Assembly (NCBI RefSeq): GCF_044324785.1
Contig: NZ_CP172127.1
Origin: Escherichia coli
GTDB lineage: Bacteria; Pseudomonadota; Gammaproteobacteria; Enterobacterales; Enterobacteriaceae
DNA: 64,000 nt
Reading direction: 5' to 3' (one strand)
Part shown: piece by piece, positions 23,791 through 42,648 of the stretch
Position numbering within the stretch: position 1 is the first letter of the stretch
Layout: every line of letters starts with the position of its first letter
Translations under genes and position numbers: made by a program
Notes under the pieces: model-generated
What the model saw: the letters and a program-made list of their open reading frames with translations, nothing else
What the model was told of the DNA's origin: nothing
Database searches by the model: none

Positions 23791-24023
23791 TGACCGCGCG
23801 CGAGGTTTTAACAGAACGGCTGCTGGAAGCGGAAATCGCTCTGCACAAATTATTAACGGGTAAATCGACCGTGTCGCTGTCTCACGGCGATTCAGCGGGA
23901 AATAACCGGAGCTATCAGTACTCCCAGGCGAGTATTGAACAGCTCCGAACGTACATTATCGAGCTGAAATCACAGCTCGGTCTGAGTACGGGACGCCGCC
24001 GTCCCGTGGGAGTTCGATTATGA
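23790..24023 (+). CDS. head-tail joining protein (lambda gpW-like)
   Basis: size and LHKLLTGK...YI.ELK.Q.G pattern as lambda W; follows terminase. Confidence 0.65.
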   Translation: MTAREVLTERLLEAEIALHKLLTGKSTVSLSHGDSAGNNRSYQYSQASIEQLRTYIIELKSQLGLSTGRRRPVGVRL

Positions 24024-25594
24024 CTGCTCCACAGCAGCTGCTCGGGCCTGACGGTAAAACGCCACTACGCCGTTTTGCGGGGTATAACGGCGGCGGTCCC
24101 GGTTTCGGTGGCCAGCTGATTGACTGGAATGCGCCACAGCAAAGCGCCGATGCGGCACTGCTGCCTAATTTTTATCGCGGTAACGCGCGAGCAGACGATC
24201 TCGTTCGCAATAACGGTGTCGCGTCGAACGCCGTGCAGCTGCACCAGGATCATATTGTCGGCAATCTGTTTAAATTGAGTTATCGCCCTAACTGGCGTTA
24301 CCTAGGGATATCTCGCGAGGACGCCAGGGCGCTGGCGCGTGACGTTGAGGTCGCGTGGACTGAATACGCTGAGGACCCTCACTGCACGATTGATATCGAG
24401 CGGAAACGGACGTTCACAATGATGATCCGCGAGGGTGTGGCCACTCACGCGTTTAACGGTGAAACCTGCGTACAACCGGTCTGGGAAAGCAGTACCGGTA
24501 GCGTTTTTCGGACGCGATTCAAAATGGTTTCGCCGAAACGGATTCGAAATCCGGGTTACGCAGCTGACACCCGATTTCGCCGCGCCGGTGTTGATATCGA
24601 TAAAAATGGAGCCGCAGTGGGCTACTGGATAGCCGAGGACACCTATCCACTCGGTGGAATCGGCAAGTGCCGGCGTATACCAGCGCAGCTCAGCAGCGGC
24701 AGACACGCATTCATTCACATATTCGAGCCGCTCGAGGACGGACAGACCCGCGGAGATAACATTTTCTACAGCGTCATGGAGCGCCTGAAAATGCTCGACA
24801 CACTGCAGCAAACACAGCTGCAGAGCGCGATTGTTAAGGCCATGTACGCCGCGACAATCGAATCAGAGCTCGATAGTCAGCAAGCGTTTGAATATATCGC
24901 CGGCGCGGGTACTGATATCGACTCGAACCCACTGAATTCGTTTATTCAGAGTTACGTGACGTACTACAACGGCGCAAATATCAAGCTCGGTGGTGTGAAA
25001 GTTCCTCATCTGCATCCCGGCGACAAACTCAGTTTACAGACCGCTCAGAATGCTGATGCTGGTTTTAGTTCACTGGAAAAATCACTCCTGCGTTACGTTG
25101 CAGCTGGCGTTGGCGCGTCATACGAAGAACTTAGCCGGGACTACAGCCAGGTCAGTTACTCCAGCGCCCGGGCCAGTGCTAACGTCAGCTGGCGATTTTT
25201 CATGGGGCGTCGACGTTTTATCGCCGCGCGACAGGCTTCGCTGATGTTCTGCTGCTGGTTTGAGGAGGCGCTGGCGCGCGGGATTATCACTCTGCCCCGC
25301 TCCGCGGTTCGGTCGTTTTACGAGGCGCGGAACTCCTGGACGAATGCCCTCTGGATCGGCGCTGGACGTATGGCCATCGATGGGCTGAAGGAGGTTCAGG
25401 AGAGCGCCATGAGAATCACGACCGGCCTCAGCACGTATCAGAACGAACTGGCGCTGCAGGGACAGGATTACGAGGAGGTTATGGAGCAACAGGAATACGA
25501 AATTCAGCGCCGGCGTGAAATGGGGCTGAGCGAACCGTCATGGTCTGTATCTCACTCCTCAAATACCAACGATAACGGCTGGGGAGGTAACTGA
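24020..25594 (+). CDS. portal protein (lambda gpB family)
   Basis: 524 aa, gene order and similarity to lambda B. Confidence 0.85.
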   Translation: MTAPQQLLGPDGKTPLRRFAGYNGGGPGFGGQLIDWNAPQQSADAALLPNFYRGNARADDLVRNNGVASNAVQLHQDHIVGNLFKLSYRPNWRYLGISREDARALARDVEVAWTEYAEDPHCTIDIERKRTFTMMIREGVATHAFNGETCVQPVWESSTGSVFRTRFKMVSPKRIRNPGYAADTRFRRAGVDIDKNGAAVGYWIAEDTYPLGGIGKCRRIPAQLSSGRHAFIHIFEPLEDGQTRGDNIFYSVMERLKMLDTLQQTQLQSAIVKAMYAATIESELDSQQAFEYIAGAGTDIDSNPLNSFIQSYVTYYNGANIKLGGVKVPHLHPGDKLSLQTAQNADAGFSSLEKSLLRYVAAGVGASYEELSRDYSQVSYSSARASANVSWRFFMGRRRFIAARQASLMFCCWFEEALARGIITLPRSAVRSFYEARNSWTNALWIGAGRMAIDGLKEVQESAMRITTGLSTYQNELALQGQDYEEVMEQQEYEIQRRREMGLSEPSWSVSHSSNTNDNGWGGN

Positions 25595-26901
25595 TGCCGT
25601 GGAACAATTTTCCGCACCTCGCCGCCAGGGCGTTCAATCAACCGCTTTTGCTGGAGCCCGCCTACGCGCGGGTGTTTTTTTCAGCGCTGAGCGACCGGTT
25701 CGGTACCGGGCGACTGATTGATACAGCGTCCGGAGAGGTAATGAACAGCGACGAAATGAACGCGCTCGCGATGGGGTGGGACAGCAGCGAGCGAACACGC
25801 CAGAAATCGTATCGCGTGGAGCGTGGTATAGCCGTTCTGCCTGTTACCGGGACGCTGGTTCATAAATTGGGTTATATCAATCCGGTCAGCGGGATGAGCG
25901 GTTACGACGGAATCGCAAAACGTCTGCAGCAGGCGATTTCTGATCCCGATGTTAAGGGGGTCTTGCTGGATATTGACTCCCCTGGCGGTGAGGTCGCCGG
26001 CGCGTTTGATACCGCTGATCTAATCGCCCGGGCGCGAGAGCAAAAACCGGTGTGGGCGCTGGCCAGCGATACGGCCTGCAGCGCCGCCTATTTGCTGGCG
26101 TCAGCGTGCTCGCGCAGGCTGATAACGCAGACCGGCACGGTTGGTTCAATCGGTGTCCTGATGGCTCACCGCTGCGTCGAAAAAGCGCTGGAGATTGCTG
26201 GCGTTGACGTGACGCTGATTTACGCCGGTGCACGCAAGGTCGACGGAAATCCTTACTCACAGCTGCCCGACGACGTTCGCGACGAATTCCAGCTGAGTAT
26301 TAACAGCACGCGCGAGCAGTTCGCGCAAAAAGTCTCGGATTATACCGGGCTGAAAAAATCCAGGGTGCTGGCCACTGAGGCCGCAGTATTTATCGGCGCG
26401 GACGCGATTAAATCTGGTCTCGCTGATCAACTCGTTAATTACGCGGACGCTATTGCAGTGATGGCCGACGCACTGAAACCAAAAATGGAGCGATTTATGC
26501 CAGGTACAGAAACCACGGCGGAGACCACGACCACAGAACAAACCGCGGCCACGACTACGGTCGCGCAGATTGAGTTCAACGAGAAACAGATTCGCGCTGA
26601 CGCTGTGTCGAGCGAACTGGCGCGCGTGATGGCCATCATCAATTGTCCCGAGGCCGTCGGGCGCGAGGCGCAGGCAAAAGCGCTCGCCGGCGTCCCCGGG
26701 ATGACCGTCGAGCAGGCGCAGCTGGTCCTCGCGGCAGCACCGCAAACGGCGCAGGCGCGGACAGAAACGGCGCTCGATACACTAATGAGCACTGAATCAC
26801 CGGCGACTATTCAGGATGCCGGCAGCATTACGGCAACAGGAACAACCGCAAACGTCTCGATGCTTGTCGCGGCAGGGCGTTCAATTTTAGGGGATGAATG
26901 A
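25594..26901 (+). CDS. head maturation protease / scaffold (lambda gpC-like, S49 ClpP-like)
   Basis: S49 peptidase core plus Ala/Thr-rich scaffold-like C-terminus. Confidence 0.8.
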   Translation: MPWNNFPHLAARAFNQPLLLEPAYARVFFSALSDRFGTGRLIDTASGEVMNSDEMNALAMGWDSSERTRQKSYRVERGIAVLPVTGTLVHKLGYINPVSGMSGYDGIAKRLQQAISDPDVKGVLLDIDSPGGEVAGAFDTADLIARAREQKPVWALASDTACSAAYLLASACSRRLITQTGTVGSIGVLMAHRCVEKALEIAGVDVTLIYAGARKVDGNPYSQLPDDVRDEFQLSINSTREQFAQKVSDYTGLKKSRVLATEAAVFIGADAIKSGLADQLVNYADAIAVMADALKPKMERFMPGTETTAETTTTEQTAATTTVAQIEFNEKQIRADAVSSELARVMAIINCPEAVGREAQAKALAGVPGMTVEQAQLVLAAAPQTAQARTETALDTLMSTESPATIQDAGSITATGTTANVSMLVAAGRSILGDE

Positions 26902-27230
26902 TGACCACAGAAACGTATAGCCCGGATGATTTTATTCTGGGACCTGATCTCGTTGTGACGACCGTCGGTCATTTTCAGGGTGGGATCAACGTACCCCGGC
27001 TGACACCGATTATGCTAGACGCTACCGCCGGCACGTTTAAAGTCTGGGACGGTTCAGTCGGTAAGGCCATTGGCCTCACAGCCACCGCAGTTAATACGGG
27101 TTCCAGTTCTGCAGACTGCTCGTACTACAAATCAGGCTCGTTCCGTTACACGGCGATCAATTGGGGTACGGTTACCGACGTAGCTAAACGCAAATCAGCG
27201 TTTGCTGGTACGCCAGTCAGCGTCGGCTGA
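26898..27230 (+). CDS. head decoration protein (lambda gpD-like)
   Basis: PLMLD...W.G...YKSG.FRY...W......KR.AFAGT pattern as lambda D. Confidence 0.75.
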   Translation: MMTTETYSPDDFILGPDLVVTTVGHFQGGINVPRLTPIMLDATAGTFKVWDGSVGKAIGLTATAVNTGSSSADCSYYKSGSFRYTAINWGTVTDVAKRKSAFAGTPVSVG

Positions 27231-27251
27231 TGGCAAAAAAACTCAAAACAA

Positions 27252-27277
27252 GCCGCCTCCGGGCGGTTTTTTTATAC
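27252..27277 (+). terminator. intrinsic terminator / attenuator before major capsid gene
   Basis: ccgcc-tccg-ggcgg hairpin plus ttttttt. Confidence 0.6.
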
Positions 27278-27288
27278 AGGATATCTAA

Positions 27289-28323
27289 ATGAGCGATTCG
27301 TTTACTACGTCAGAACTCATTACCGCGACACAGCAGGTATTTAAGTTCAATCCGTTATTTTTAAGACTTTTTTTTCGTGAGACATACACGTTTACGAGCG
27401 AAGAGGTTTTTCTGGATAAAATCCCGGGAAAAGTGAACATGGCCGTGTACTGCGCGCCGATGATCACCGGCAAAGTTGACCGCACTCGCGGCTATTCAAC
27501 GAACCATTTCAAACCGGGTTACACGAAGCCGAAACACACGATCAATCCGAATATGAGCATCAAGCGCGCCGCAGGTGAGCAGATTGGCCAGCCGGAAACG
27601 CCGGTCGAACGTCGTGCAAAAATTATCATGCAGAACCTGCTCGACGAGGAGCTCAGCATCAGTCAGCTCGAAGAGTTCCAGGCAGTGCAGGCGGTTCTGT
27701 ACGGTAAATACACCGTCTCTGGCAGCAATATCGAGACCTATGAGATCGATATGAGCCGCAGCGCGACGAATAACGTCACTCAGTCCGGTTCGACAGCTTG
27801 GTCGACTCAGGACGCAGAAACGTATGACCCGAGCGACGATATCGAATCCTATGCGGACCTCGCCTCCGGTGCTGTTAACGTGATAATTATGGACGGTAAA
27901 GCCTGGAAGCAGTTGAAGCGCTTTAAAAAATTCTGGACGACACTGGATACGCGCCGTGGCTCAAACAGCCAGCTCGAAGTCGCGCTGAAAAACCTGGGCG
28001 ATGTCGTTAGCTTTAAGGGCTATTACGGCGACACGGCGCTGTTCGTTTACAAGGGGCAATATATTGACCCTGTAACAGGCACTGAAACGCGTTATATGCC
28101 GGATAACACGATGATCCTGGGCAACACAAAAAATCGCGGACTCCGCACCTATGGCGCGATCCAGGACGAGGACGCGCTGAAAGAGGGTATCTGCGAGGCC
28201 ACGCGTTATCCAAAAGTCTGGACTACGACCGGCGATCCGGCAGTGACGCAGACAATGACCCAATCCGCGCCAGCGATGGTCCTCACCGACGCCGACGCGT
28301 TTGTCGTCGTAAAAATCGCGTAA
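27289..28323 (+). CDS. major capsid protein (lambda gpE family)
   Basis: FKFNPLFLRLFFRE, IPGKVNMA, RRAKIIMQNLLDEEL, TRRGSNS, NTKNRGLRTYG parallel lambda E. Confidence 0.9.
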   Translation: MSDSFTTSELITATQQVFKFNPLFLRLFFRETYTFTSEEVFLDKIPGKVNMAVYCAPMITGKVDRTRGYSTNHFKPGYTKPKHTINPNMSIKRAAGEQIGQPETPVERRAKIIMQNLLDEELSISQLEEFQAVQAVLYGKYTVSGSNIETYEIDMSRSATNNVTQSGSTAWSTQDAETYDPSDDIESYADLASGAVNVIIMDGKAWKQLKRFKKFWTTLDTRRGSNSQLEVALKNLGDVVSFKGYYGDTALFVYKGQYIDPVTGTETRYMPDNTMILGNTKNRGLRTYGAIQDEDALKEGICEATRYPKVWTTTGDPAVTQTMTQSAPAMVLTDADAFVVVKIA

Positions 28324-29858: not shown

Positions 29859-30391
29859 GCGGACTGGATGCATTTGACGAATATCTTGATCGCGTTAAAG
29901 GCGCGGTTTTACAAATACCGTTCATCAAAACATTCGGAATTTATCCAGAAATTCCGGCAGGATTTGAAACGCCAGCTCTGTTCCTGGAAATCAGCAACTG
30001 GTCACAGAGTGACGAATCGGTTCCAGGCTCAATTCAGTCAGTCGAGCTGTCGTGTAATTTGTATTTGCTGCGTGAGTTTGCTGCGGATCGGTACGGACTG
30101 AAATCGCAGAATGCAGCGCTCTATATGACGAGCTGGATTAATGGGCGAATGTTTGGTGCCGGAACTAAACCAGCAAAATTCAGCGACGCGGAACCGTGTG
30201 ACTGGATTAAAAACGGGCAGTCAGTCGGCTCGCATTCAGTTCAGTGCGTGTCGTTCACGCAGGTTGTCGGCGTTGGTCCCGATATTTTCGATTATCCCTC
30301 ACAGGGAACACTGAAAAATATATACGTCGGAATAGCGCCAGATATCGGCGCAGAACACGAGAGCGACTACTATGGCCCAATCGGACGATGA
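29855..30391 (+). CDS. hypothetical tail-associated protein
   Basis: coupled to neighbours in tail operon. Confidence 0.4.
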   Translation: MSGLDAFDEYLDRVKGAVLQIPFIKTFGIYPEIPAGFETPALFLEISNWSQSDESVPGSIQSVELSCNLYLLREFAADRYGLKSQNAALYMTSWINGRMFGAGTKPAKFSDAEPCDWIKNGQSVGSHSVQCVSFTQVVGVGPDIFDYPSQGTLKNIYVGIAPDIGAEHESDYYGPIGR

Positions 30392-31277
30392 TGAGTATGC
30401 GGCAGCGGAGAACGCGCGCCGGCTGCGTGACGCAGTTAAACGCGGCACTATAGCTGCAGTTAAAATGAATCCTCCTCGCTGCCGCGTCTCATTTGGCGGC
30501 GAGCACCAGTCAGGCTGGCTGCAGTGGTTCACGCACGCGACATCGGAACGAGTGGACTGGAGCGCTCCATCAGTGGGTGATCCCGTTACCGTTGTTTCTG
30601 AGGGCGGGGACACGCGAAATGGGGTTGTCATGCTCGGATTACATATTGACAACAAAGCACCGCCCAGCACTGACCCTCACGACCACGTCACCGCATACTG
30701 TGACGGCGCAACGCTAACCTATAACACAGAAAACCACACGCTCATCTGGCAAGGAGTACCGGACGGCGTAGTAAAAATACTCGGTGAGTCTGAAATAGAA
30801 ATATTCGGACGTGCAGACGTTACTATTAATAGCGAAAACGTTGTCAATATTCACGGTGGAAAATTAATTAACGCAGACGCTGACATTATTAATGTGACAG
30901 CAACAGACACAATTAACGCACATGCTGATTTAGTGAACGTTATAGCAACGAGTTCTGTTAGTGTTACTGCTGCGAACAGAATATCGCTGACAGCTCAAAC
31001 AATCAGTGCGTGGGCTCCGGGTGGGATAACACTAGCTGGTCCAACGCATATCACCGAGACATTAATTGTAGATAAATTAGCGACATTCCGTAACGATATT
31101 TCTGTCACTGGAGATAACGGTGGAACAGGTAATATCACAACTCGCGGTAGTGTGTTAGCAGGACAAGAGGTGCAGGATCGGCAAGGCACAATAACTGAAG
31201 TCCGCACAACGTATAACGGACACACTCATACATACCCGGACGGGGAAACACAACAACCGAACCAACCGATGGCGTAA
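30372..31277 (+). CDS. baseplate central spike protein (P2 gpV / Mu gp45-like)
   Basis: position before W-J-I; beta-helix-like repeats; C-terminal YNGHTHTYPDG motif. Confidence 0.65.
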   Translation: MAQSDDDEYAAAENARRLRDAVKRGTIAAVKMNPPRCRVSFGGEHQSGWLQWFTHATSERVDWSAPSVGDPVTVVSEGGDTRNGVVMLGLHIDNKAPPSTDPHDHVTAYCDGATLTYNTENHTLIWQGVPDGVVKILGESEIEIFGRADVTINSENVVNIHGGKLINADADIINVTATDTINAHADLVNVIATSSVSVTAANRISLTAQTISAWAPGGITLAGPTHITETLIVDKLATFRNDISVTGDNGGTGNITTRGSVLAGQEVQDRQGTITEVRTTYNGHTHTYPDGETQQPNQPMA

Positions 31278-31279
31278 AT

Positions 31280-31621
31280 ATGCTTGGAATGGACCGTAAC
31301 ACTGGTAAACCTTTATCCGGGGTTGACCATATTCGTCAGTCTATCGTTGATATTTTAACGACTCCGCTGGGAACACGTGTAATGCTGCCGGAATATGGAA
31401 GCAAATTATTTGACCTCGTTGATAATCCCACAGATCCATCGCTTGCTATGCGAATAATTATGGAAAGCGCTGGCGCAATAGCACGCTGGGAGCCACGCGT
31501 CAGAATTGACAGAATAAATGTGTTAGCAGTGGATATCGGGAAAATAACAATATTAATTATCGCAACAGATATCGAAACACAACAGCGATTAGAGTTTAAT
31601 AATATGGAGCTGATATTTTGA
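31280..31621 (+). CDS. baseplate assembly protein W (GPW/gp25 family)
   Basis: 113 aa; SIVDILTTPLGTRVMLPEYGSKL pattern. Confidence 0.75.
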   Translation: MLGMDRNTGKPLSGVDHIRQSIVDILTTPLGTRVMLPEYGSKLFDLVDNPTDPSLAMRIIMESAGAIARWEPRVRIDRINVLAVDIGKITILIIATDIETQQRLEFNNMELIF

Positions 31622-32538
31622 TAACATCAACAGTTCAGAATTCGATAGTGAAAACTATTGATATGAGTCTGCTGCCGCCGCCAGCATTCGTTAAAACCCC
31701 GTTATTTTCAGATGTTAAATCTAAGCTACTGTCAGATCTGCAGATATTATATCCACAATTTAACGCACTCCTGGAGTCAGACCCGGCAGTTAAACTGCTG
31801 GAAATAGTTGCATACAGAGAAATCATTATTACAGCTCGGGTAAATCAGGGGATGTTCGCGGTGTTACTCGCGTTTGCAAAAGGGAGTGACCTCGACCAGA
31901 TTGGCGCTAATTTTGACTGTCTGCGGCTGTTGATAACGCCAGCTAATCCTGACGCAATCCCCCCGACTGAGGCGGTTTACGAGAGTGACGACGAGTATCG
32001 TCATCGCATACAGCTATCATGGTATGCGCGGAATACTGCTGGCAGTACGAACGCGTATAACTATTTCGCGCTATCGAGTGATCCAGACGTTTTGTCTGCT
32101 CAGGCATACGGCCCCCCCGTGACCCAACCTGGATACGTCGATATGTATGTCCTGTCGCGAACCGGCGACGGCACTCCGCCTCAATCACTACTGAATACAG
32201 TTAATGCAGCGCTGTCTCCTGATGACACCCGACCGCTAACCGATTTCGTTACAGTAAAACCTGCGTCGAACCTGAATTACCGGGTTGAGGCCGTTATCGT
32301 AGCGGGGCTCGGTCCCGACCAGAACGTGTTGCTCGACGGTGCTCAGAGCGATTTAGCTATATACGTGGCTACACAACATAAAATCGGGGCGACGGCAGCT
32401 CTGTCGGGAATTTACGATGCGATACACCGTGACGGCACTGAGCGTGTGATTCTGATATCGCCAACAGAGGATGTGATCGCTGGCGTCGGACAGGCCCCGC
32501 ACTGCACAGAAATCAAACTCAGCGTGCAAATGGGGTAG
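31618..32538 (+). CDS. baseplate protein J
   Basis: size and order as P2 J. Confidence 0.75.
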   Translation: MITSTVQNSIVKTIDMSLLPPPAFVKTPLFSDVKSKLLSDLQILYPQFNALLESDPAVKLLEIVAYREIIITARVNQGMFAVLLAFAKGSDLDQIGANFDCLRLLITPANPDAIPPTEAVYESDDEYRHRIQLSWYARNTAGSTNAYNYFALSSDPDVLSAQAYGPPVTQPGYVDMYVLSRTGDGTPPQSLLNTVNAALSPDDTRPLTDFVTVKPASNLNYRVEAVIVAGLGPDQNVLLDGAQSDLAIYVATQHKIGATAALSGIYDAIHRDGTERVILISPTEDVIAGVGQAPHCTEIKLSVQMG

Positions 32539-32540
32539 CC

Positions 32541-33167
32541 ATGACAAGTCAAAGCGTACTGCCTCCGAACGCAATAACCCCCGAGAGAGCGCTGGAATCT
32601 GTTTTATCTCACGTTGGCGATCTGCCTGGCGATATTCGAATTATTAAAAATCCCGATTTGTGTCCTGCAAATCTGTTGCCGTGGCTGGCGTGGGAATACG
32701 CCGTCACCTACTGGAACCCCGACTGGAGCGAGCAGCAAAAACGCGAAATTATTAAAGCAGCTGCGTGGCAGAACAAGCACCGCGGAACGCGTGGAGCTGT
32801 TGAACGAGCGTTATTAACAGTTGGATTTGAGAGCAAAATGAGAGAGTGGTTTGAAGCCACGCCGAGGGACGACCCGTATACATTCGCAATTAAAATATAT
32901 CTGCTAAAAAGTATAGGGTTAGATTTAGAGCTATTGAATACATTTATAGCGCAAATATTTGATGCAAAAAATTGTCGTTCATTATTAAAGGAAATAAATT
33001 TCGAAACGGGTGTCGATGGTGAGTTTTTTATAGCCGGTACACCTTACGCGAAAATAGACGTAAACGTCCCAGCAGACGGCGACGGCGGTGTAAAAATTAA
33101 CGGCGGGCTATATATATCGGGCTCACCAATTGTTAGTTTAAATGTGGAGATAGGGCCAAATGGCTGA
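32541..33167 (+). CDS. tail protein I (baseplate)
   Basis: size and order as P2 I. Confidence 0.7.
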   Translation: MTSQSVLPPNAITPERALESVLSHVGDLPGDIRIIKNPDLCPANLLPWLAWEYAVTYWNPDWSEQQKREIIKAAAWQNKHRGTRGAVERALLTVGFESKMREWFEATPRDDPYTFAIKIYLLKSIGLDLELLNTFIAQIFDAKNCRSLLKEINFETGVDGEFFIAGTPYAKIDVNVPADGDGGVKINGGLYISGSPIVSLNVEIGPNG

Positions 33168-34284
33168 AAATAAAATTTACGCAGTACTGACAGACCGTGG
33201 CGCACAACTCGAGGCCGCTGCCCTGGCGTCAGGCGTTCCAGTGGTGCTGAACAAATTTGTTATCGGTGACGCGAACGGAAACGACGATGTAACACCAGAC
33301 CCTGCACGAACAGCATTAATTCACGAGACGTATCGCGGTGATATTAAATCGTCAGAAAATAGCGGTAATCAGGTTATTTTTACGCTATACGTACCACCGG
33401 AAACCGGCGGCTATACTATCCGCGAAGTGGGAATACTGACAGATAAAGGTGAACTGTACTCTGTAGCGCGTTCGCCGGATATTTTAAAACCCACGGACAG
33501 TAACGGCGCGCTGATTTCAATCACGTATAAATACACTCTCGCGGTGTCCAGCACCTCTACAGTTAATGTTGTAGTATATGACAACTACGTAACTCCCGAA
33601 GCAGCTGACAAAAAATATTTGCAGATAAGTAAAAACTTATCTGAAATTTCCGCAAATGGTGAAACTGCTCAGCAGGCTGCGCGGAAAAATATTGGTATAG
33701 ATGGGGATGTTGCATATAGAGATAAGAGTAATACATTTACAACTCAAAACACTTTCAAAGACGATGTTTTTTTTGAAGATATTTTGATTTCTAAAAAACA
33801 AATAAATATAAATAAACCAGATACCAACTTGACATTATTTTCGCTTGCGGGCTGGTCAGATGTGAGCGGTGATTATTTAGAAGTGTCGACGCGGGGGGGA
33901 AATAATCAAAACGTTTTTTATAGATTACGCGGAATTCACTATGACGGCCTGGTGTTACTGTGCGGCGGGCAGACGTATAAATATTGGAATGAGGGAAATC
34001 TTAAACCGGTTAAAACGATTAACGGGAAGTCCCCAGACGCTAACGGGAACGTCGCAATAACAGTAAGTAGCTCAGGGATACAGAACGTCCAGCTTGGCGC
34101 AGAGGTTGCTCACACACCGGCGAGTAATGAGGTTACGTGGGACTTTAAATGTCCGACCGGCTGTGTTCTTACTGGGATATATGTTCAGGAAACCGGCGAC
34201 AGCTCAGCTGATAATATCGGCGGTGTTTATTATAAACCGATCCAAAAATACATTAATAATGTATGGACTACGATTTCCGGATGA
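33160..34284 (+). CDS. tail fiber protein
   Basis: conserved N-terminal fiber domain, AT-rich variable C-terminal half. Confidence 0.7.
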   Translation: MAENKIYAVLTDRGAQLEAAALASGVPVVLNKFVIGDANGNDDVTPDPARTALIHETYRGDIKSSENSGNQVIFTLYVPPETGGYTIREVGILTDKGELYSVARSPDILKPTDSNGALISITYKYTLAVSSTSTVNVVVYDNYVTPEAADKKYLQISKNLSEISANGETAQQAARKNIGIDGDVAYRDKSNTFTTQNTFKDDVFFEDILISKKQININKPDTNLTLFSLAGWSDVSGDYLEVSTRGGNNQNVFYRLRGIHYDGLVLLCGGQTYKYWNEGNLKPVKTINGKSPDANGNVAITVSSSGIQNVQLGAEVAHTPASNEVTWDFKCPTGCVLTGIYVQETGDSSADNIGGVYYKPIQKYINNVWTTISG

Positions 34285-34287
34285 GTT

Positions 34288-34866
34288 ATGCAAAATTTAA
34301 AATCATTTAAGCTTGTAAAACCTAAAACGAAATTACTTAAACTTAGCGAGTCTGACGGACAAAATGTTTTGTATCTTCAGTCCGAAGACGGCCTGGATTG
34401 GTATGAATGCCAGTCACTGTATCGCGATGACACAGTAAAAATAATGTACGACAAAGAAAACATTATTCGATCAGTTGTTGATCGCCCGGTCCCGGAGCGA
34501 GGAAATACCTATTCTGTGAGCATGTTTTTCCCGATTGATATGAGTGTTACGGAGGTTGAGTTGAGCACATATCCTTCTGAGCTAACTCTCGACGGATCGT
34601 GGAAATTTGTTGACGGTGATGTATATCAAGATGAGCTCATTGTAAATGAGCGTATTTACAAAGAAAACTCCAAAAAAATTAATGAATTAGTCCGAGAGGC
34701 TCAGTCAGCAATTCTAAATTTACAAACGGCCATAGAGATTGATATTTCATCAGATGGTGATGAGGAAAAATTAATAGAATGGCGACGGTACCTGTGCGCG
34801 CTGAATAAAATAACAGCCACGGATCTGAGTCAGTCCCCACTTAACACGCCTTTACGACCAGCATAA
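34288..34866 (+). CDS. tail fiber assembly chaperone
   Basis: immediately downstream of fiber gene. Confidence 0.5.
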   Translation: MQNLKSFKLVKPKTKLLKLSESDGQNVLYLQSEDGLDWYECQSLYRDDTVKIMYDKENIIRSVVDRPVPERGNTYSVSMFFPIDMSVTEVELSTYPSELTLDGSWKFVDGDVYQDELIVNERIYKENSKKINELVREAQSAILNLQTAIEIDISSDGDEEKLIEWRRYLCALNKITATDLSQSPLNTPLRPA

Positions 34867-34878
34867 ATAGGGTACCTA

Positions 34879-36384
34879 ATGAGCACTAATTTTTTACACG
34901 GTATTCGCACGCTCGAATACGACGACGGCACAAAAGAGATTAGCACGGTAGATATTTCAGTTATCGGGATTGTTGGTACTGCACCGGATTCCGCGCAATC
35001 AACCAGTTCCGAGTTAATAACAGGGAGTGCTATTTTAAAAAACCGCCTGAAATTCACGGCGACGGGACAGGGGGTGAACGGCAATTCATGGAGCGTAGAG
35101 ATTCTCGAAACCGATCCGGACGGCTGCACGGCACTGTGGAGTGATATGCCCGACGGGAGTCGACGTTTATCAATATCAGTCGCACCGGCATCCGGCTCGC
35201 ACGGATACACCCCAGCAGAAATCGTGCAGGCAGTCACAATAGCAAACCCGCCTCCGGACCAATTATTTTTAACAATTACGGCAGTAGATGTCGAGGAGGA
35301 CGCGGGAAATGTGACTGCCTCACCGTTGCAATATTTAAGCGGCGGCAGTGATGAGGCGTTCCCAATTAATACCCCCGTACTTGTTGCCGGGAGTCCAAAA
35401 AAATCCGCTTTACTGGGTGAGCGCGGCACGTTGCCGAAAGATATTGCCGATATTTTCAATCAGGACAACGCCTTGCTTGTTGTTGTACGAGTAAAAGATG
35501 ACAAAGACACAACAAAACAACAGCAAAATATTATCGACGGTGTCAAGCAGCTGGAAAAATCGAAACAGTTAACCGAAGTCACACCGCGTATTATTATTGC
35601 ACCAGATTTTAGCGCAATTGATGCGATAGCCGCTCAGCTTGAGGTGGCCGCAAATAAACTCCGGGGGGTGTGTTATATAGACTCTCCGCGCGCTGCTACC
35701 CCTGCAGACGTTGTGAATCGCCGGCAAAAACTCGGCGGACGTGCTGAGTTGTTGCGTCCCCGTGTTTATTCAACTAGCGACGTCGGGGGGCAATCAAGAC
35801 CGTATTCTGCCATCGCTGCTGGTTTACGAGCCAGAATTGATAATGAAAAAGGGTTTTGGTGGAGTAAGTCGAATCAAAATATTTATGGAATAACAGGGCT
35901 TGAGCAGGTTGATGATTTCATTATTGGCGAGACAAACTGCACAGCGAACCTGCTGAACGCTAGTCAGGTCAGCACCATCATTCGCTATGACGGATTCCGA
36001 CATTGGGGTAACTATCTGTGCAGCCTGGATCCGCAATGGTCGTTTGAATGCGTTCGTCGAACAGCTGACGTAATTGAGGATTCTATAGCCCGGGCAATGA
36101 TGACCGATTTTATTGATCGCCCGATAGACCTGCATCTCGGAACAGACGTTGTCGAGTCGATAAACGCGTATCTGCATAAATTAGAGGAGCAGGGTGCGAT
36201 TAACGGAGGGCGTGCGTGGTTAGACGGTGAGCTGAATACAAAAGAAAGTCTGGCCGCTGGCAATCTTTATATTAATGTTGATTTTGGTCCGAAATCTCCG
36301 GCACAAACAATTACGTTAATGTACCGCATTAATAATGACTATACAGTTGAAGCACTAGCCTCACTTTTTAAAGAAACAGCCTGA
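34879..36384 (+). CDS. contractile tail sheath protein
   Basis: N-terminus MSTNFLHGIRTLEYDDGTKEISTVD resembles P2 FI / Mu L. Confidence 0.85.
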   Translation: MSTNFLHGIRTLEYDDGTKEISTVDISVIGIVGTAPDSAQSTSSELITGSAILKNRLKFTATGQGVNGNSWSVEILETDPDGCTALWSDMPDGSRRLSISVAPASGSHGYTPAEIVQAVTIANPPPDQLFLTITAVDVEEDAGNVTASPLQYLSGGSDEAFPINTPVLVAGSPKKSALLGERGTLPKDIADIFNQDNALLVVVRVKDDKDTTKQQQNIIDGVKQLEKSKQLTEVTPRIIIAPDFSAIDAIAAQLEVAANKLRGVCYIDSPRAATPADVVNRRQKLGGRAELLRPRVYSTSDVGGQSRPYSAIAAGLRARIDNEKGFWWSKSNQNIYGITGLEQVDDFIIGETNCTANLLNASQVSTIIRYDGFRHWGNYLCSLDPQWSFECVRRTADVIEDSIARAMMTDFIDRPIDLHLGTDVVESINAYLHKLEEQGAINGGRAWLDGELNTKESLAAGNLYINVDFGPKSPAQTITLMYRINNDYTVEALASLFKETA

Positions 36385-36401
36385 TAATTCGGAGAGTAAA
36401 T

Positions 36402-36914
36402 ATGTCAGACAGCAACGCTTACCGCGCGTTTGCGCTATTCGTGCAGGGCGAACGGGTTTTAAATTGTACTGAATATACTCCTGTCGATATGAAAATAATC
36501 GAGGACGAGTTTAAAACAGGCGCGATGGATACAGCTATCACATTAGATGGCGGTATGGAGAAAATGTCAGCCAGTTTTAAAGTTTCGGGTTCTGATTCTG
36601 GTGTTATGAGCTATTTCGGGTTAATACCGGGAGTCAAGACGCGGTTTGAAATTCGTAGTGCGTACACAGACTCCTATGGAATAAATTTTGAGCGTATTGA
36701 TACCTACGAGGGACTTATTACGGCAATCACTGATGACGCTCAGGGGACTGATTCAAAATCGTCAGTGGGGCAATCAGTAACGATTGCGCCGAGCTATTAT
36801 AAACGAGTTCAAAATGGACGAATTATTTACGAAATTCATCCTGCAAAAATGAAACGCGTTATCAACGGTGTTGATGTTCTTGCGGGCGTCGCTCGAATCC
36901 TTCATGTATATTAA
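36402..36914 (+). CDS. tail tube protein
   Basis: 170 aa following sheath. Confidence 0.8.
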   Translation: MSDSNAYRAFALFVQGERVLNCTEYTPVDMKIIEDEFKTGAMDTAITLDGGMEKMSASFKVSGSDSGVMSYFGLIPGVKTRFEIRSAYTDSYGINFERIDTYEGLITAITDDAQGTDSKSSVGQSVTIAPSYYKRVQNGRIIYEIHPAKMKRVINGVDVLAGVARILHVY

Positions 36915-36926
36915 AAGGTAAGTAAA

Positions 36927-37208
36927 ATGGAATCCTTATTAGACAGTATGACTATTACGCTCTCTCGACCGTTTATTATTAAGGGCGAGAGCTGCGATAC
37001 AATTACTATTCGCGAACCCAAATTACGCGACCGCATTATGTTCAGTAACGATAAAAGCAGTCTTGAAGAGCGGACAGCGACAATGCTGGCGCGCCTGGCA
37101 AATCTGGAAAGAGAGGATTTATATGCGCTCCCCGCGTGCGATTACGATCAACTGGAGGCCGCGTTTAACGAACTGGTAAAGCACCCGAAAGACCGACATC
37201 AGATATAG
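36927..37208 (+). CDS. tail assembly chaperone (P2 gpE-like)
   Basis: 93 aa between tube and tape measure; -1 frame open for about 55 codons from 37169 to 37335. Confidence 0.6.
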   Translation: MESLLDSMTITLSRPFIIKGESCDTITIREPKLRDRIMFSNDKSSLEERTATMLARLANLEREDLYALPACDYDQLEAAFNELVKHPKDRHQI

Positions 37209-37316
37209 TTATTCTGATTCCGTTTATTGCGAAAAAACTTGCCATCCCGCCTGATACGCAAATGGACCTGCCGTATCGGGTTTTTAATTTCTATGTAGAC
37301 GAGGTCATGAAAACCG

Positions 37317-38957
37317 ATGGCTATTTCTCAAAACTTTAAAACGCAGGTTGTATTCGGGGGGCGAATAGACCCGTCGTTTCGGCGCGGTACAACAGAACTC
37401 AACGACGCCATTCGGCAGACGTCGTCTACTGTCGGAAAATTAACGAAAAGCCAGGATAAATTAAAAGACAAAATCGCAGCAATGAAACTGGCAGGTAAAG
37501 ATGTCTCTGATTTATCTGCTCAATATCAAAAGCTGGACCGTCGGATAAAGGCGACAACGCAGGACCAGGAGGCGCTGAATACCCAGCTTGCTAAAAAACA
37601 GCGGCTGGAGAAGTGGACGGGGCGCGCAAAAGGTGCTGCAAAATGGGGCGGACGAGCCGCCGCAGGTGCGGTGAGGGCCACGGGACGGGGTATCAAATGG
37701 GGGACGCTGGGGGCCGTGGGTCTGCTCGGCGGCGCGGCTGCTGGCGCGCTGGCAATGAATGCAGAGACGTCAGAAAAACTCGGTCTGGCGAAGTCCTACG
37801 GTGTTGGCATCGAAAAATACGCTGCGTGGGAAAATATTGGTAAAGCTGCGGGCCTGAACGGCGAAAATGTTGGTGACCTGTCAGAAGAACTTACAAATAA
37901 AATCGGCGAAATCGGAAACGAAAAAAACCTGAACCCCATGTTGTTTCAAATTGGCTTGACAAAAAAACGGATGGCTAAATGGGATCGAGAAAAACAGTTC
38001 AATGAAGTTATGCGGCGTATCTCTGAAATGAAGGATGATCAACAGGCGGCGAGTCTGGCTGATCAGCTAATGGGGGGAGAGGCTAATAAAATAATGACCT
38101 ATATGCGGGCGACTGGTAAAAGCTGGGAGCAGACTATGTCGGACGCTCAAAAATCAAACCTGCTAACGAAAGAAGGGGCTGAGGGTGCAGCGCGCGCGCA
38201 CGTATCCGTCACGAATCTGTGGGGGGCAATCACATCGGGGCTGGCAGATACTCTCGGCAAAATCGGAGGGGAACTCGCGCCGACGTTTGACGCTATGCGA
38301 GACGGGCTGGCATCCTGGTTTAAAGAGAATCAAGGGGGGGTTGTTGATAGTATTAAAGAATGGGTTAAGCCAGAAAATATGAAAAAACTTTGGGAGGGGA
38401 TAGTCAGTTTTGGCGAGGCGTGCGTTAAATTCGGAAAAATAATTTGGGCAGTCGTAAAAAAACTGGAGTGGTTAATCCCGGACGAGAAAACAGACGAGGA
38501 ACAGCGCGTATATAACGAAGAATATAATAAAGCGTATCAGGAATTCATGGATAGTGGTGGTAAATATTCACCGAACCCAGGACTGGCAGCAGATAATGTA
38601 GCAAAAGCAAAAGCCGACGAAGCCGTGGATAATATGCGACACCCTGAACGTCTTGCTCGTGCAAAATCACAGGCTGAATCAATGCTCTCGTTTGCTAACC
38701 CGTTTACTGGATTAATAAATAAAGACTCAACGCCTGAATCACAAAACTCAGCAACGTTGAATATTGACGCGCTGAGACAGGCAGTCGCAACTCCAGCGCC
38801 AGAGCAAAACAATAAAATTGAAATCAATATTATCGGAGCAGCAGATCCACAATCAACACAGCAGGCTGCCGCATCGGGTGTGCTCGACGGGCTGAGACAG
38901 GTTGCGAGTTCGTACAATCGTGGTGCAATGTTTGATAAACCAGCGGCGGCGGGGTGA
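37317..38957 (+). CDS. tail tape measure protein
   Basis: 546 aa, coiled-coil and Gly/Ala-rich segments. Confidence 0.7.
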   Translation: MAISQNFKTQVVFGGRIDPSFRRGTTELNDAIRQTSSTVGKLTKSQDKLKDKIAAMKLAGKDVSDLSAQYQKLDRRIKATTQDQEALNTQLAKKQRLEKWTGRAKGAAKWGGRAAAGAVRATGRGIKWGTLGAVGLLGGAAAGALAMNAETSEKLGLAKSYGVGIEKYAAWENIGKAAGLNGENVGDLSEELTNKIGEIGNEKNLNPMLFQIGLTKKRMAKWDREKQFNEVMRRISEMKDDQQAASLADQLMGGEANKIMTYMRATGKSWEQTMSDAQKSNLLTKEGAEGAARAHVSVTNLWGAITSGLADTLGKIGGELAPTFDAMRDGLASWFKENQGGVVDSIKEWVKPENMKKLWEGIVSFGEACVKFGKIIWAVVKKLEWLIPDEKTDEEQRVYNEEYNKAYQEFMDSGGKYSPNPGLAADNVAKAKADEAVDNMRHPERLARAKSQAESMLSFANPFTGLINKDSTPESQNSATLNIDALRQAVATPAPEQNNKIEINIIGAADPQSTQQAAASGVLDGLRQVASSYNRGAMFDKPAAAG

Positions 38958-39382
38958 CAATGAGTGATGCAATAAACGGTGCTGAGGATATCATGCTCGG
39001 TTTGGGTGATTTCATTTTTGCTATATCAACAGTAGCGTACAACAAACTGCAACGTAGTGACGCCTGGCGCTGGGCTCAGCAAACACGATTCGGGAAAAAC
39101 GACGCATTGCAGATAACCGGACGACCGAACCCCACAATCACGATCGATGGGAAAATAAACGCGTTATTCCTTGATGGGTGCGGCATTGGCTTGTTAACAG
39201 ATTTGCGGGCACTGGGGAACTCGGGAGAACCCCAGCAACTGGTGCTGGGGACCGGGGAGGTGAAGGGGTACTGGGTTATCAGGGAGTTAACAGAAACGCA
39301 AAACAGTTTTCTGAAAGGAGGGACCCCAAAATCGCAGGACTTTTCACTCACGCTCGAATATTATGGAGCTTCGCTAGATTAA
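38954..39382 (+). CDS. tail protein U
   Basis: pattern matches P2 gpU family. Confidence 0.7.
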   Translation: MTMSDAINGAEDIMLGLGDFIFAISTVAYNKLQRSDAWRWAQQTRFGKNDALQITGRPNPTITIDGKINALFLDGCGIGLLTDLRALGNSGEPQQLVLGTGEVKGYWVIRELTETQNSFLKGGTPKSQDFSLTLEYYGASLD

Positions 39383-39544
39383 TACAAAATCAAGCGCTAC
39401 CAGAGCACTTAACAAGTATAAAAATAATAAAAAAAACTACGAGCATAAATGTAAAACAACCTGATGGTATTTTTTTTTGACGCCGAAATACTAATACCTC
39501 TCCGACTACTAAAATTAATTCTCATTATGAAATCCTTTTAATTA

Positions 39545-39769
39545 ATGGGGCCCCAAATGATTACATACACTACACGGGACGGTGACCGTCTCGATCAGAT
39601 CTGCCTTGCTGTCTACGGGAGAACAGCAAAAACGACAGAAACCGTGTTATATCAGGTTTTAAATTACGGCGTAACGGATATGTGTGCCGTGTTTCGTGCA
39701 GGAGAAAAAATTGTTTTACCAGAAATCGACCCCGAACCGGCTAAAAAAGAAACGCAATTATGGGATTGA
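39545..39769 (+). CDS. tail protein X (LysM-like)
   Basis: DRLDQICLAVYGRT ... ETVL pattern as P2 gpX. Confidence 0.7.
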   Translation: MGPQMITYTTRDGDRLDQICLAVYGRTAKTTETVLYQVLNYGVTDMCAVFRAGEKIVLPEIDPEPAKKETQLWD

Positions 39770-39772
39770 TGA

Positions 39773-40816
39773 ATGAGTGATTACGTAAATACTGGCGTGG
39801 AAGCATGGAAGCCCAATTTTTATATATCTGCTGATAATGAAAACATCACGGATAAAATAAGAAAAGGTTTGATCAATATCACGCTCACAGATTATGGTGG
39901 TTCGAGTAAACAGACAGACGAATTACGCGTAGCAATCGTTTCTGAAACTCTGAAAATTCCGGCCCGCGGAGTAAAAATCAGTATTGGGCTCGGTTTCGGT
40001 AATCAGATAATTGATAAGGGTGTATACATCGTTGATGGTGCGAGCAGTGGCGGTGAACCCCGGGTAGTTGATTTCACAGCAAAAGCAGCTCCGATGAACG
40101 CATCAAAAGGCTCTCCGACAGTTCAGAGCAAAAAAACTCGCTCCTGGAGCGACGTCACTGTCAGCAATATCGTTGCAACAATAGCGAGCGATAACGGGCT
40201 AAAACCTCGCGTATCAAAGCGGTTTGCAGACAACATTATCACGCAGCTCGATCAAGTCGGCGAGTCAGATATGCACCTGATGTCGCGGCTCGCAACGAGA
40301 TTCGATGCGGTGAGTAAACCCGCGGGCGGGTACTGGATATTCCTGCCGCGCGGCGCGGGCGAATCTGTTAGCGGAGCACCGCTTCAGCACTACACGCTCA
40401 CGCGTCGTGATAACTCAAGCTGGGGTTATTCGAGAAATGGACAAAACGGTGATAGTGGCGGAGGTGGCGAAAATGCGGAGCCAACGTATTTGATCAAATA
40501 TCACGATACAGCAACGGGGCAGATCAAAGAATTGCGTACGGGCAGTGGCGGCGATCCTGTAATCGAGTGGCCGGCAGTGGAGCCGTCGCTTGATGCAGCG
40601 AAAGAAGCTGCGCCAGGACTCAAGGGCGGTGCAGCTAAAAAAGAGTTCTCCATGACTTACACGACGCCCGCGACGCTCGATTTAGTATCGCTGACTGCAG
40701 AATGCAAAGTCACAACACAAGGATTCGGGACAGAGGAGGACCGAGACTGGACAATCAATACGTTGACGCTGACGCTGGCTGAAAACGGATTCTCTGCGCG
40801 ACTGTCGCTGGAGTAA
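39773..40816 (+). CDS. tail protein D (late control D family)
   Basis: 347 aa, last gene of P2-like tail order. Confidence 0.8.
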   Translation: MSDYVNTGVEAWKPNFYISADNENITDKIRKGLINITLTDYGGSSKQTDELRVAIVSETLKIPARGVKISIGLGFGNQIIDKGVYIVDGASSGGEPRVVDFTAKAAPMNASKGSPTVQSKKTRSWSDVTVSNIVATIASDNGLKPRVSKRFADNIITQLDQVGESDMHLMSRLATRFDAVSKPAGGYWIFLPRGAGESVSGAPLQHYTLTRRDNSSWGYSRNGQNGDSGGGGENAEPTYLIKYHDTATGQIKELRTGSGGDPVIEWPAVEPSLDAAKEAAPGLKGGAAKKEFSMTYTTPATLDLVSLTAECKVTTQGFGTEEDRDWTINTLTLTLAENGFSARLSLE

Positions 40817-40821
40817 ATGAA

Positions 40822-42648
40822 ATGGCAATAATATCGGGTGTATACGCAAATGGGGTCGGCGAGCCCGTTGTCGGCGTTCAGTTAGTATTAACAGCACGGG
40901 TCACGAGTTCACGCGTAGTAATGACCACTGTTGTAGAGCAAGAAACAGGCGCGGCGGGTGAGTACAAATTTGATATGAAGCCCGGAGTTTACGTTGTCAC
41001 TGCTAGTGCGGCATATCTCGGCGTGATTAACGTTAACCCGGACAGTGTTGACGGCACGTTAAACGACTATTTGACTAATTTTAGCGCAGACGAACTGACG
41101 CCAGCTGCGTTGGCGGAGATCCAGGAACTCGTTGCCACAGCACAAGCCGCTGCCAGTGTTGCCAGCGCCGCCGCAACGGAGGCCAGGCAGAATGCCGCCG
41201 CCGCCGCTGCTGCTGCGCAGATTTCGACGGCAGCGGCAGGGAGCGCCAGATTTGAGAATTTTGACGAAATTATCAATGTCAATACAACAGCAATGCTGGA
41301 GCTGGAAAAACCGGAGGTGTTAGATCCGGATATTGCAATAACTATCACAGAGACGATTAATTATAACTATATTGGCCCGGTAAACGGATTTTGCGACGTT
41401 ACTAGCCCGCTTGAATATAAAATTCAAATGTACGCCTACACAACAGGCGAATATTTTAACGGCGAAACAAATTTAACAGCGGACGGGAAGTTTTCTTTTA
41501 AACGTTCCTGGGCTGGTGCAAAACAATTCAGATTGGTGCGCGTAGCAGATAGTAAATGGATCACTACGCTGGAATACCCGCTGTGTATTCGCAGTTACTG
41601 GATGCCCGCTGACGCCGATCCCGAGGTAGTCAGCGTCATGAAAGACCGTTGCTACACATATGATCAGGCGTGCGCGGCGCTGGCTCTCATGGCGCAGAAT
41701 CACGAGGCGGTAGAGCGTTATGTTACGGGTCTGTGCGCCCTGGTGGGTGAAAACGGCGGCATTAAATTTTTTGTTAACCGGCTGTCCGCACAGTCCTCCC
41801 GCGAATATTACCGCACGGGTAACGCGGCGTGGGTGTTGTACGCCCTGGCATTCTATCTGAGCAAATACCCTACCGGCAGTAACGCTGAGTTAGCGCGCGC
41901 GAAATTAAACGCCGGGCTAACCTGGCTGGACGGTCTGAAGGTTGACGCCAGCGGCGACCCGCGCCACGGCTTATACATGGGCGGCAACGGTAAATATCTG
42001 GAGGACGGATCATTTGATCCGAATTATGTTGCGACCTGGTGCGCGCTCGAGCACAACGTTGATATTTATTTTTTATTCGAACTCGTTGGACGGTTAACCG
42101 ATTTTACCGGATACGAACTGCGAGCCACCACGCTGGCTGCAAATATCGTGGAAAAATTCTGGATTGAGAGCGAGGGGCGATTCCGGCAGGGCGTGCACAT
42201 TGACGGCCCGGACAACGCCGCAGCGCTGGATCAATCGAGTTGGGGCGGGATATTCGCAGTAAAAGCCGCGCCGGAGTTGGCGGAAAAATGCCGCCGTTAT
42301 ATGGAAAGATTCCGGTTCGGCACACTGGAGAGCACCGGTTATACACCGTATCACCCGGACTACGGATACAGCGGCCATAGCCGTGGCGTGTGGACCGAGG
42401 GTACAGCGGGTGTAGCACTATTCGAACGTGCGCTAGGGAACGAGCAGAGAGCTACCGATCTGATCGCGGGATTAAAACCACTGCGTAATGAATACGGCTA
42501 TCGCGACTCATGCGACGATAAAAAATACGACACACTGCCGGACTGGCCGTCGACTACAAACACCGCTTGGGTTATTTTAACATGCAAGCCGGCGGGGTTT
42601 TGGTGCGTAGATTTCCCGGTATTGGACGTTGGTATCGTCAGGTACTGA
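40822..42648 (+). CDS. side-tail-fibre-like N-terminal domain fused to putative (alpha/alpha)6 glycoside-hydrolase-like domain
   Basis: N-terminal ~100 aa parallel lambda Stf N-terminus; Ala-rich linker; ~400-aa C-terminal domain with glycosidase-like character. Confidence 0.5.
   Translation: MAIISGVYANGVGEPVVGVQLVLTARVTSSRVVMTTVVEQETGAAGEYKFDMKPGVYVVTASAAYLGVINVNPDSVDGTLNDYLTNFSADELTPAALAEIQELVATAQAAASVASAAATEARQNAAAAAAAAQISTAAAGSARFENFDEIINVNTTAMLELEKPEVLDPDIAITITETINYNYIGPVNGFCDVTSPLEYKIQMYAYTTGEYFNGETNLTADGKFSFKRSWAGAKQFRLVRVADSKWITTLEYPLCIRSYWMPADADPEVVSVMKDRCYTYDQACAALALMAQNHEAVERYVTGLCALVGENGGIKFFVNRLSAQSSREYYRTGNAAWVLYALAFYLSKYPTGSNAELARAKLNAGLTWLDGLKVDASGDPRHGLYMGGNGKYLEDGSFDPNYVATWCALEHNVDIYFLFELVGRLTDFTGYELRATTLAANIVEKFWIESEGRFRQGVHIDGPDNAAALDQSSWGGIFAVKAAPELAEKCRRYMERFRFGTLESTGYTPYHPDYGYSGHSRGVWTEGTAGVALFERALGNEQRATDLIAGLKPLRNEYGYRDSCDDKKYDTLPDWPSTTNTAWVILTCKPAGFWCVDFPVLDVGIVRY

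Follow-up and report, generated by a model that had tools for sequence, protein, structure and literature searches.

The stretch of DNA analysed here (64,000 nucleotides (nt) of the Escherichia coli contig NZ_CP172127.1, assembly GCF_044324785.1; below, the window) carries on its + strand a contractile-tail module, recognised from the layout of its open reading frames (ORFs) and a Pfam search. Between the tail tube gene and the tape measure gene of this module lies a short ORF for a tail assembly chaperone of the gpE type, and its 3' end is overlapped by a second open frame in the -1 register that runs on to the start of the tape measure gene. We consider it very probable, from the sequence and its relatives, that the two frames encode the tail chaperone pair of a prophage with a P2-type contractile tail and that this pair is made via a programmed -1 frameshift. 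The features concerned are the following (aa, amino acids).

36402-36914, + strand: tail tube gene, 170 aa (PF04985 Phage_tube, E 8.3e-22), directly 5' of the chaperone gene

36927-37208, + strand: tail assembly chaperone, 93 aa, frame 0 (PF10109), an analogue of gpE and of lambda gpG

37175-37181, + strand: proposed slip site G_GTA_AAG, invariant and in frame in all 30 loci of the window group defined below

37181-37339, + strand: -1 extension (E'/T-like), 52 codons (37181-37336) and a TAA stop (37337-37339)

37317-38957, + strand: tape measure gene, 546 aa, assigned by position and size, its first 21 nt shared with the end of the extension

The chaperone ORF gave a match to PF10109 (Phage_TAC_7; E 2.6e-16, 59.8 bits with a cut-off of 25), a family described as 'Phage tail assembly chaperone proteins, E, or 41 or 14', and another one to phrog_166, 'tail protein' (E 7.6e-26). 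The gpE+E' product of P2 matches PF10109 too, over its gpE part (residues 7-85), and P2 gpE scores 47.5 bits. The N-terminal domain is a member of the gpE family. The initial annotation of this DNA had placed the stop codon of the gpE-like ORF at 37206-37208, which is correct (TAG), and had described a -1 frame open from 37169 to about 37335, or some 55 codons. We found 56 sense codons at 37169-37336, opening straight after a -1-frame TAA (37166-37168), with the translation RTGKAPERPTSDIVILIPFIAKKLAIPPDTQMDLPYRVFNFYVDEVMKTDGYFSKL, and closed by the TAA that lies 21 nt within the tape measure gene. It was also correctly noted that the extension and the tape measure start differ in frame: the ATG at 37317 shares frame 0 with the chaperone and is therefore not in the frame of the extension. 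An open frame of 56 codons is, by itself, only marginally unusual. The +1 frame is open at 37180-37251 only and shows no conservation, so that a Mu-type encoding of the extension by a -2 (equal to +1) shift does not fit this locus.

Evidence that the -1 frame is coding comes from relatives gathered from assemblies and IMG/VR. Those whose chaperone is 51-99% identical to that of the window, which we call the window group, comprise 30 loci with 15 distinct extension sequences and originate from E. coli, Salmonella and metagenomic viral contigs. The locus search was built on a 10-sequence alignment; a 32-sequence alignment had no stretch conserved enough. Each of the 30 loci has an uninterrupted -1 frame of exactly 52 codons, the last base of GGTAAAG being taken as its first position, while frame 0 contains two to six stops per locus and frame +1 one to three. 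The extensions of the window group follow the consensus xxxRxxxDI[IVL]x[IL][IML]P[FY][IVL][AST][KR]x[LM][AG]I[PQ]Px[TED]Q..[LM]PYRVFN[FL]YV.E[LV].K..G. Where the extension is free of overlap with the chaperone and tape measure genes (35 codons), the variable columns are distributed among the three codon positions as 17/10/30. The pooled ratio of nonsynonymous to synonymous variation (pN/pS) is 0.32 in the -1 frame vs 1.44 in frame 0 and 2.02 in frame +1. Moreover, the 'intergenic' stretch is ~98% identical in relatives that are ~90% identical over the surrounding 1-kb region (36400-37400). Of the five substitutions in this stretch, three affect third positions of -1-frame codons. Such an open frame, codon-position pattern and pN/pS together make up the signature of a translated protein and rule out both a chance ORF and an element that acts purely as RNA. 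Overall, the comparison indicates that the -1 ORF is protein-coding and has no start codon of its own.

These data bear directly on the idea that the -1 frame is untranslated and that 37209-37316 is instead a conserved regulatory or RNA element, for instance one controlling tape measure translation. The stretch does hold the ribosome-binding site of the tape measure gene. In addition, RNAalifold picked a distal 7-bp hairpin within the extension (37226-37232 with 37239-37245, ~45 nt 3' of the slip site), which is 87% paired in 10 relatives, with three pairs changed on both sides, and whose covariation score was matched in 0/500 shuffles. A terminator-like match at 37264-37283 could be read in the same direction; we set this candidate aside, as such matches are not above the shuffle expectation and the site is not conserved in relatives. 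An Rfam scan of 36800-37500 returned no matches beyond a chance snoRNA (E 6.9). The 17/10/30 pattern and the pN/pS of 0.32 in the -1 frame alone are, however, signatures of a protein, and the motif PYRVFNFYV persists despite many synonymous changes, so an explanation by a regulatory element alone is in our opinion hardly credible. As for the distal hairpin, it is too distant from the slip site for a classical frameshift stimulator.

It might also be supposed that the -1 ORF is a separate small gene with a start of its own, for which no frameshift is needed. Annotation practice offers examples of this kind: the Prokaryotic Genome Annotation Pipeline (PGAP) annotates mini-ORFs of P2-like prophages as separate 'GpE family phage tail protein' genes, stand-alone entries of 39-52 aa exist for the P2 E' region, and the Hafnia phage yong2 has an annotated 39-aa 'hypothetical protein' coding sequence (CDS) between its chaperone and tape measure genes. 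However, no ATG, GTG or TTG is conserved in the -1 frame across the window group; the only ATG of the window (37262-37264) is absent in relatives, and a start there would remove the most conserved, N-terminal half of the extension. Conservation begins right behind the heptamer, a few residues past the start of the overlap, and from the heptamer onward the extension never departs from 52 codons. A separate gene would, besides, leave unexplained the synonymous-site constraint on the heptamer that is described in the next paragraph. We therefore regard such a gene as very unlikely.

The place where ribosomes could change frame was narrowed down with the help of the relatives. Most of them have a -1-frame stop one to three codons 5' of GGTAAAG; therefore, the -1 frame has to be entered between that point and the frame-0 stop, over ~37-43 nt, and in several relatives this frame opens no earlier than the codon before GGT. 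Within the obligatory segment of the window (37169-37208), G_GTA_AAG is the sole conserved slippery motif. A canonical X_XXY_YYZ heptamer is absent from this overlap, just as the initial annotation had stated when it pointed to the A_AAG at 37178-37181 as the likeliest slip site. The codons flanking the heptamer vary, reading GAACT, GAGAT or GAAAT before it and CAC, CCT, ACC, CCG, CCC, ATC, ACG, GCC or GAC after it. For a codon test, we took the 33 columns in which the amino acid is invariant across eight lineages and the codon is degenerate. Just five of the 33 proved to be invariant in nucleotides, among them the GTA and AAG that stand side by side in the heptamer. GTA is also the sole invariant 4-fold codon, and conserved Pro and Gly codons each show four variants. 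Such a pattern indicates that the heptamer is under selection at synonymous sites.

More distant relatives lead to the same place by another motif. In chaperones 33-51% identical to that of the window (below, the TTTTTTG group), T_TTT_TTG precedes the homologous position by one codon (FN[DRNA]FLLPP vs FNE[LM]VKxP), and a conserved -1 extension (…QPGI.YWCR[LI]TF.EQL.LP[VL]S…) likewise ends near the tape measure start; T_TTT_TTG is also the heptamer of the annotated P2 E/E+E' site. The yong2 locus (L050, 1489-1910) has T_GTT_TTT at the same place, its extension region being the one annotated as a separate 39-aa ORF, and in Burkholderia phage Mica (L049, 1453-1865) the likely motif at this place is A_AAT_TTT, the frameshift pair being curated there as 'tape measure chaperone'. 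It follows that the family retains the frameshift and its position and exchanges the slippery motif. Most fusions are 134-138 aa long in either group; that of P2 has 142 aa, and two distant relatives reach ~160 aa. Overall, the choice of A_AAG gains support from the invariance of the heptamer in nucleotides, the variability of neighbouring synonymous sites and the T_TTT_TTG at the homologous position of distant relatives, and the conserved 52-codon extension, its pN/pS and the invariant heptamer speak for the -1 shift that the initial annotation had proposed as a way of extending the gpE-like chaperone.

What we infer, namely slippage at this site, its efficiency, the contribution of nearby signals (a GGAGG and a hairpin, see below) and the molecular roles of both products, may be pictured as follows. 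The majority of ribosomes would make the 93-aa chaperone from 36927-37208 and terminate at the TAG, and a minority would slip back by one base on G_GUA_AAG (37175-37181). In the A site, tRNA-Lys would move from AAG (37179-37181) to AAA (37178-37180). In the P site, tRNA-Val would move from GUA to GGU, which is near-cognate: by codon-anticodon rules, the first base would be matched after the slip, the wobble base possibly, and the middle base mismatched. The slipped ribosomes would then read GCA at 37181 and onward for 52 codons until the TAA at 37337-37339, giving a 137-aa fusion that consists of 85 shared residues and the extension APERPTSDIVILIPFIAKKLAIPPDTQMDLPYRVFNFYVDEVMKTDGYFSKL. The tryptic peptide APERPTSDIVILIPFIAK of this predicted fusion is encoded solely via the shift. 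If lambda gpG/gpGT and P2 gpE/gpE+E' are a guide, the N-domain common to both products might coat the tape measure protein and the extension might recruit the tube protein and nucleate its polymerisation, and neither chaperone product would be expected to end up in the virion (for lambda G/GT, see PMC5009743).

The literature offers some precedents for a site of this kind. The minimal -1 site is a Z_ZZN tetramer (PMC5009743, PMC4066793), and A_AA.G is by far the most shift-prone -1 tetramer in E. coli (PMC4066793); the explanation given is that there is a single lysyl-tRNA(UUU), whose pairing is poor on AAG and cognate once it has moved to AAA (PMC5009743, PMC4066793). Natural sites with a P-site codon that does not re-pair are A_CGA_AAG of Bacillus subtilis cdd and G_CGA_AAG of IS1222 (PMC5009743). 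The authors of PRFect found non-canonical motifs of the 'twoonefour' type among annotated chaperone frameshifts (PMC10885494), a class to which G_GTA_AAG would seem to belong. A literature search for the heptamer string itself brought up unrelated papers only.

Two elements around the slip site were considered as candidate stimulators.

37154-37158, + strand: Shine-Dalgarno-like GGAGG, 16 nt 5' of the heptamer

37186-37229, + strand: proximal 3' hairpin, its core 37198-37203 paired with 37213-37218 and the frame-0 stop in its loop

GGAGG, GGAGGAGG or AGAGG is found 13-16 nt 5' of the heptamer in 8/8 lineages, and Sharma et al. (2014) sought such elements 6-17 nt upstream (PMC4066793). Since the GGAGG doubles as code for a conserved L/M-E, it offers one informative synonymous site only. 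This internal GGAGG is a possible weak stimulator. The proximal hairpin has a minimum free energy of -9.2 kcal/mol and a z-score (z) of -2.3 in the window and forms in six of seven lineages (z from -0.9 to -4.0), being absent in L027; no covariation beyond that of shuffles was detected in it, and the fold of a longer, 96-nt segment reaches a z of -0.5. This hairpin may stimulate the shift weakly, or it may simply result from the coding sequence.

It is also important to set out what weighs against the proposed frameshift. The heptamer is non-canonical and the P-site step from GUA to GGU leaves a mismatch at the middle base, and in reporter constructs A_AAG gave ~0.15% frameshifting without a stimulator, compared to 5.6% with a strong pseudoknot (PMC4066793). 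A strong stimulator was not found: the proximal hairpin, which one lineage does not have, is weak and shows no covariation, and the GGAGG, at 16 nt, is near the limit of the published distances and is confounded by the coding constraint. Further, the extension of the window and those of five relatives have no match to PF06528 (P2 E') up to E 10, where P2 E' itself scores 76 bits, and none of the Pfam, PHROG and NCBIfam models matched the extension alone. Lastly, PGAP and GenBank carry no frameshift annotation in the five relatives inspected.

The non-canonical heptamer also invites the thought that the fusion is made otherwise, through another codon in 37169-37208, through transcriptional slippage or through a P-site-only slip elsewhere. 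A C_CCG_AAA lies nearby in the window, an A_AAA tetramer is found in locus L008, and sequence cannot separate a -1 from a +2 shift. Yet no second slippery motif is conserved across the lineages, and there is no A/T run long enough for slippage of RNA polymerase, the longest being A3. The opening of the -1 frame at the codon before GGT in several relatives narrows the room for another site, and the distant group has its canonical T_TTT_TTG at the corresponding spot. An origin of the fusion by some other slip is thus improbable in our view, and a -1 shift on G_GTA_AAG remains our preferred explanation.

The initial annotation had suggested comparing the extension with the E' proteins of P2-like phages, and the similarity that emerged is weak. 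Besides the missing PF06528 match, a narrow profile of the window group returned no relationship with the P2 E' family (hhalign probability 0.5%, E 0.13). The window group and the TTTTTTG group are related to each other in their extensions (profile-profile probability 76%, E 2.2e-5, 42 columns), and the TTTTTTG group compared to the P2 E' family gave a probability of 5% (E 0.0075). There is a weak match of a broad profile of 17 sequences, pooling both groups, yong2 and Mica, to the P2 E' family (hhalign probability 57%, E 1.1e-4, 38 collinear columns), in which IPPDTQ of the window is paired with WPPSEL of P2 E'. Homology of the extension to P2 E' is, on these profiles, plausible.

An AlphaFold model of the 137-aa fusion, made with an 18-sequence alignment, has a mean predicted local distance difference test score (pLDDT) of 83.5 and a predicted template modelling score (pTM) of 0.69. 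In this model, the N-domain consists of a beta-hairpin and helices, and the extension forms three helices, H91-105, H109-113 and H117-131, with pLDDT values of ~87-90. The best match of the fusion model in BFVD, a collection of predicted viral structures, is the 137-aa frameshift product of Mica (E 3.9e-7, 120 columns); a sequence search and a fold search of PDB found no relative. We read the extension as an E'/T-type domain by its presumed function and its position.

Judged from its sequence, then, the locus is an unannotated but ordinary member of the known frameshift class represented by lambda G/GT and P2 E/E+E'. The closest parallels are with P2 gpE/gpE+E' (AF063097), where a -1 shift is annotated at the T_TTT_TTG run. 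The order tube (FII), E, T (tape measure), U, D is alike, as are the PF10109 N-terminal domain and the product sizes (93/137 aa here vs 91/142 aa in P2); in both, the extension stops a few nt inside the tape measure gene, and distant relatives of the window chaperone bear the T_TTT_TTG of P2 at the homologous position. Unlike P2, the window has G_GTA_AAG, which is not an X_XXY_YYZ heptamer, its extension lacks a PF06528 match and shows weak profile similarity to E', and the head genes of the prophage are lambda-type rather than P2-type. Lambda gpG/gpGT (a -1 shift at G_GGA_AAG, ratio ~30:1) resembles the window in that a chaperone ORF, extended in the -1 frame, separates the tube gene from the tape measure gene, and in its heptamer, which is one base apart (G_GTA_AAG vs G_GGA_AAG) and uses the same AAG-to-AAA slip of lysyl-tRNA (PMC5009743). 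The window module, in contrast to lambda, is that of a contractile tail. No similarity in sequence to lambda G or T was seen, although no search was directed at it. Since P-site re-pairing here would be imperfect in comparison with lambda, the efficiency may be lower.

Other known systems are alike in part. The tape measure chaperone of Mica (PF10109) is the best structural match, with 137 aa, the same gene position and a curated -1 frameshift; it differs in sequence (identity ~23-31%) and in the likely slip motif A_AAT_TTT. Mu gp41 is named in the PF10109 description line and its gene lies between the tube and tape measure genes, but its record annotates a verified -2 shift, whereas here it is the -1 frame that holds the conserved extension, and stops interrupt the +1/-2 frame. 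Finally, B. subtilis cdd (A_CGA_AAG) and IS1222 (G_CGA_AAG) share with our locus an A_AAG after a codon unable to re-pair fully (PMC5009743), although they are a cellular gene and an insertion sequence (IS) transposase. IS-type sites also work with a strong pseudoknot or hairpin on the 3' side, for which the window has no evident counterpart.

The genomic surroundings agree with the gene arrangement of the class, the chaperone pair lying between the tube gene (36402-36914) and the tape measure gene (37317-38957), as in other frameshifted chaperones. The remaining genes of the tail module are listed here, and the order as a whole is sheath, tube, chaperone, tape measure, gpU, gpX, gpD.

34879-36384, + strand: sheath (PF04984/PF17482)

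38954-39382, + strand: gpU-like (PF06995)

39545-39769, + strand: gpX-like (PF05489)

39773-40816, + strand: gpD-like (PF05954, weak match)

Upstream of the tail module there are P2-type baseplate genes and also head genes of lambda type (gpA terminase, a lambda-family portal, an S49 protease and capsid E). The prophage is a mosaic, combining lambda-type packaging and head genes (21829-28323) with a P2-type contractile tail (30372-40816). Directly 3' of gpD, at 40822-42648, lies a 608-aa ORF that contains a prophage tail-fibre N-terminal domain (PF08400, E 5e-25) and, in one segment, is rich in alanine. With it, a second fibre-like protein closes the tail operon, the other fibre (PF12571) being encoded at 33160-34284. 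Several relatives carry a minus-strand superinfection-immunity gene (PF14373) just after gpU (L002, 4962-5001; L006, 5413-5655; L007, 5412-5654). In L007 this gene sits between gpU and gpX, where the window has just 162 nt (39383-39544). The place behind gpU looks like a variable cargo slot of the tail operon.

Of 5,426 complete E. coli genomes, 454 have the 1-kb region around the chaperone gene, in every case in the chromosome and at 80-99% identity (413 of these genomes fall in the 80-90% class), and it occurs in four 'vB_EcoM' phage records as well. In the five relatives that we inspected, the chaperone is called 'phage tail assembly protein' (PGAP) or 'hypothetical protein', the tape measure is labelled 'hypothetical', and the 108-bp stretch between the two genes is left as intergenic. 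In one relative, E. coli SaT040 (L003, NZ_CP014495.1), the tape measure is annotated as two hypothetical CDSs (2918-3697 and 3736-4557), which suggests an interrupted gene in a defective prophage copy.

Protein databases contain further versions of the chaperone. Two entries of 137 aa, P0001 and P0002, were considered as natural in-frame fusions and rejected, since their junctions are at differing positions and they have siblings in the +1 frame; we read them as indel errors of assembly, which are no evidence for the shift. The entries P0001-P0004, P0016, P0022, P0026 and P0027 are versions of the chaperone moved to the -1 or +1 frame at various points, their sources being mostly Logan and ENA assemblies. 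Such indel-type entries could mislead annotation by homology. Homologues of another kind (P0028, P0034, P0036, P0040, P0043 and others) are ~170-200 aa long and have two tandem PF10109-like stretches in one ORF, that is, duplicated chaperone domains; the profile of phrog_166 also has a length of 201 positions.

What the locus adds concerns annotation and frameshift biology; the understanding of how tail chaperones act is unchanged by the finding. As none of the five inspected relatives has a frameshift product in its annotation, their proteomes lack a predicted and probably essential tail-assembly protein. Automated pipelines, as well as frameshift searches limited to X_XXY_YYZ, would miss such sites. 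The modestly interesting feature, as far as sequence comparison goes, is the strictly conserved non-canonical heptamer in place of the T_TTT_TTG of relatives. We would suggest, as a tentative and rather doubtful scenario, that G_GUA_AAG is a selected -1 heptamer that works with imperfect re-pairing of tRNA-Val and no strong 3' stimulator, having been swapped for the T_TTT_TTG that relatives carry one codon over. If so, the lineage would be a natural test case for the way in which slip-site identity sets the ratio of chaperone to fusion, and the fusion ratio may be far below the 1:30 of lambda, or may be raised by the upstream GGAGG and the hairpin with the stop in its loop. For frameshift biology, the locus is a clean case for comparison, with clear synonymous-site selection on a non-canonical heptamer based on the A_AAG tetramer, within one chaperone family that keeps the shift position and exchanges the motifs T_TTT_TTG, G_GTA_AAG, T_GTT_TTT and A_AAT_TTT.

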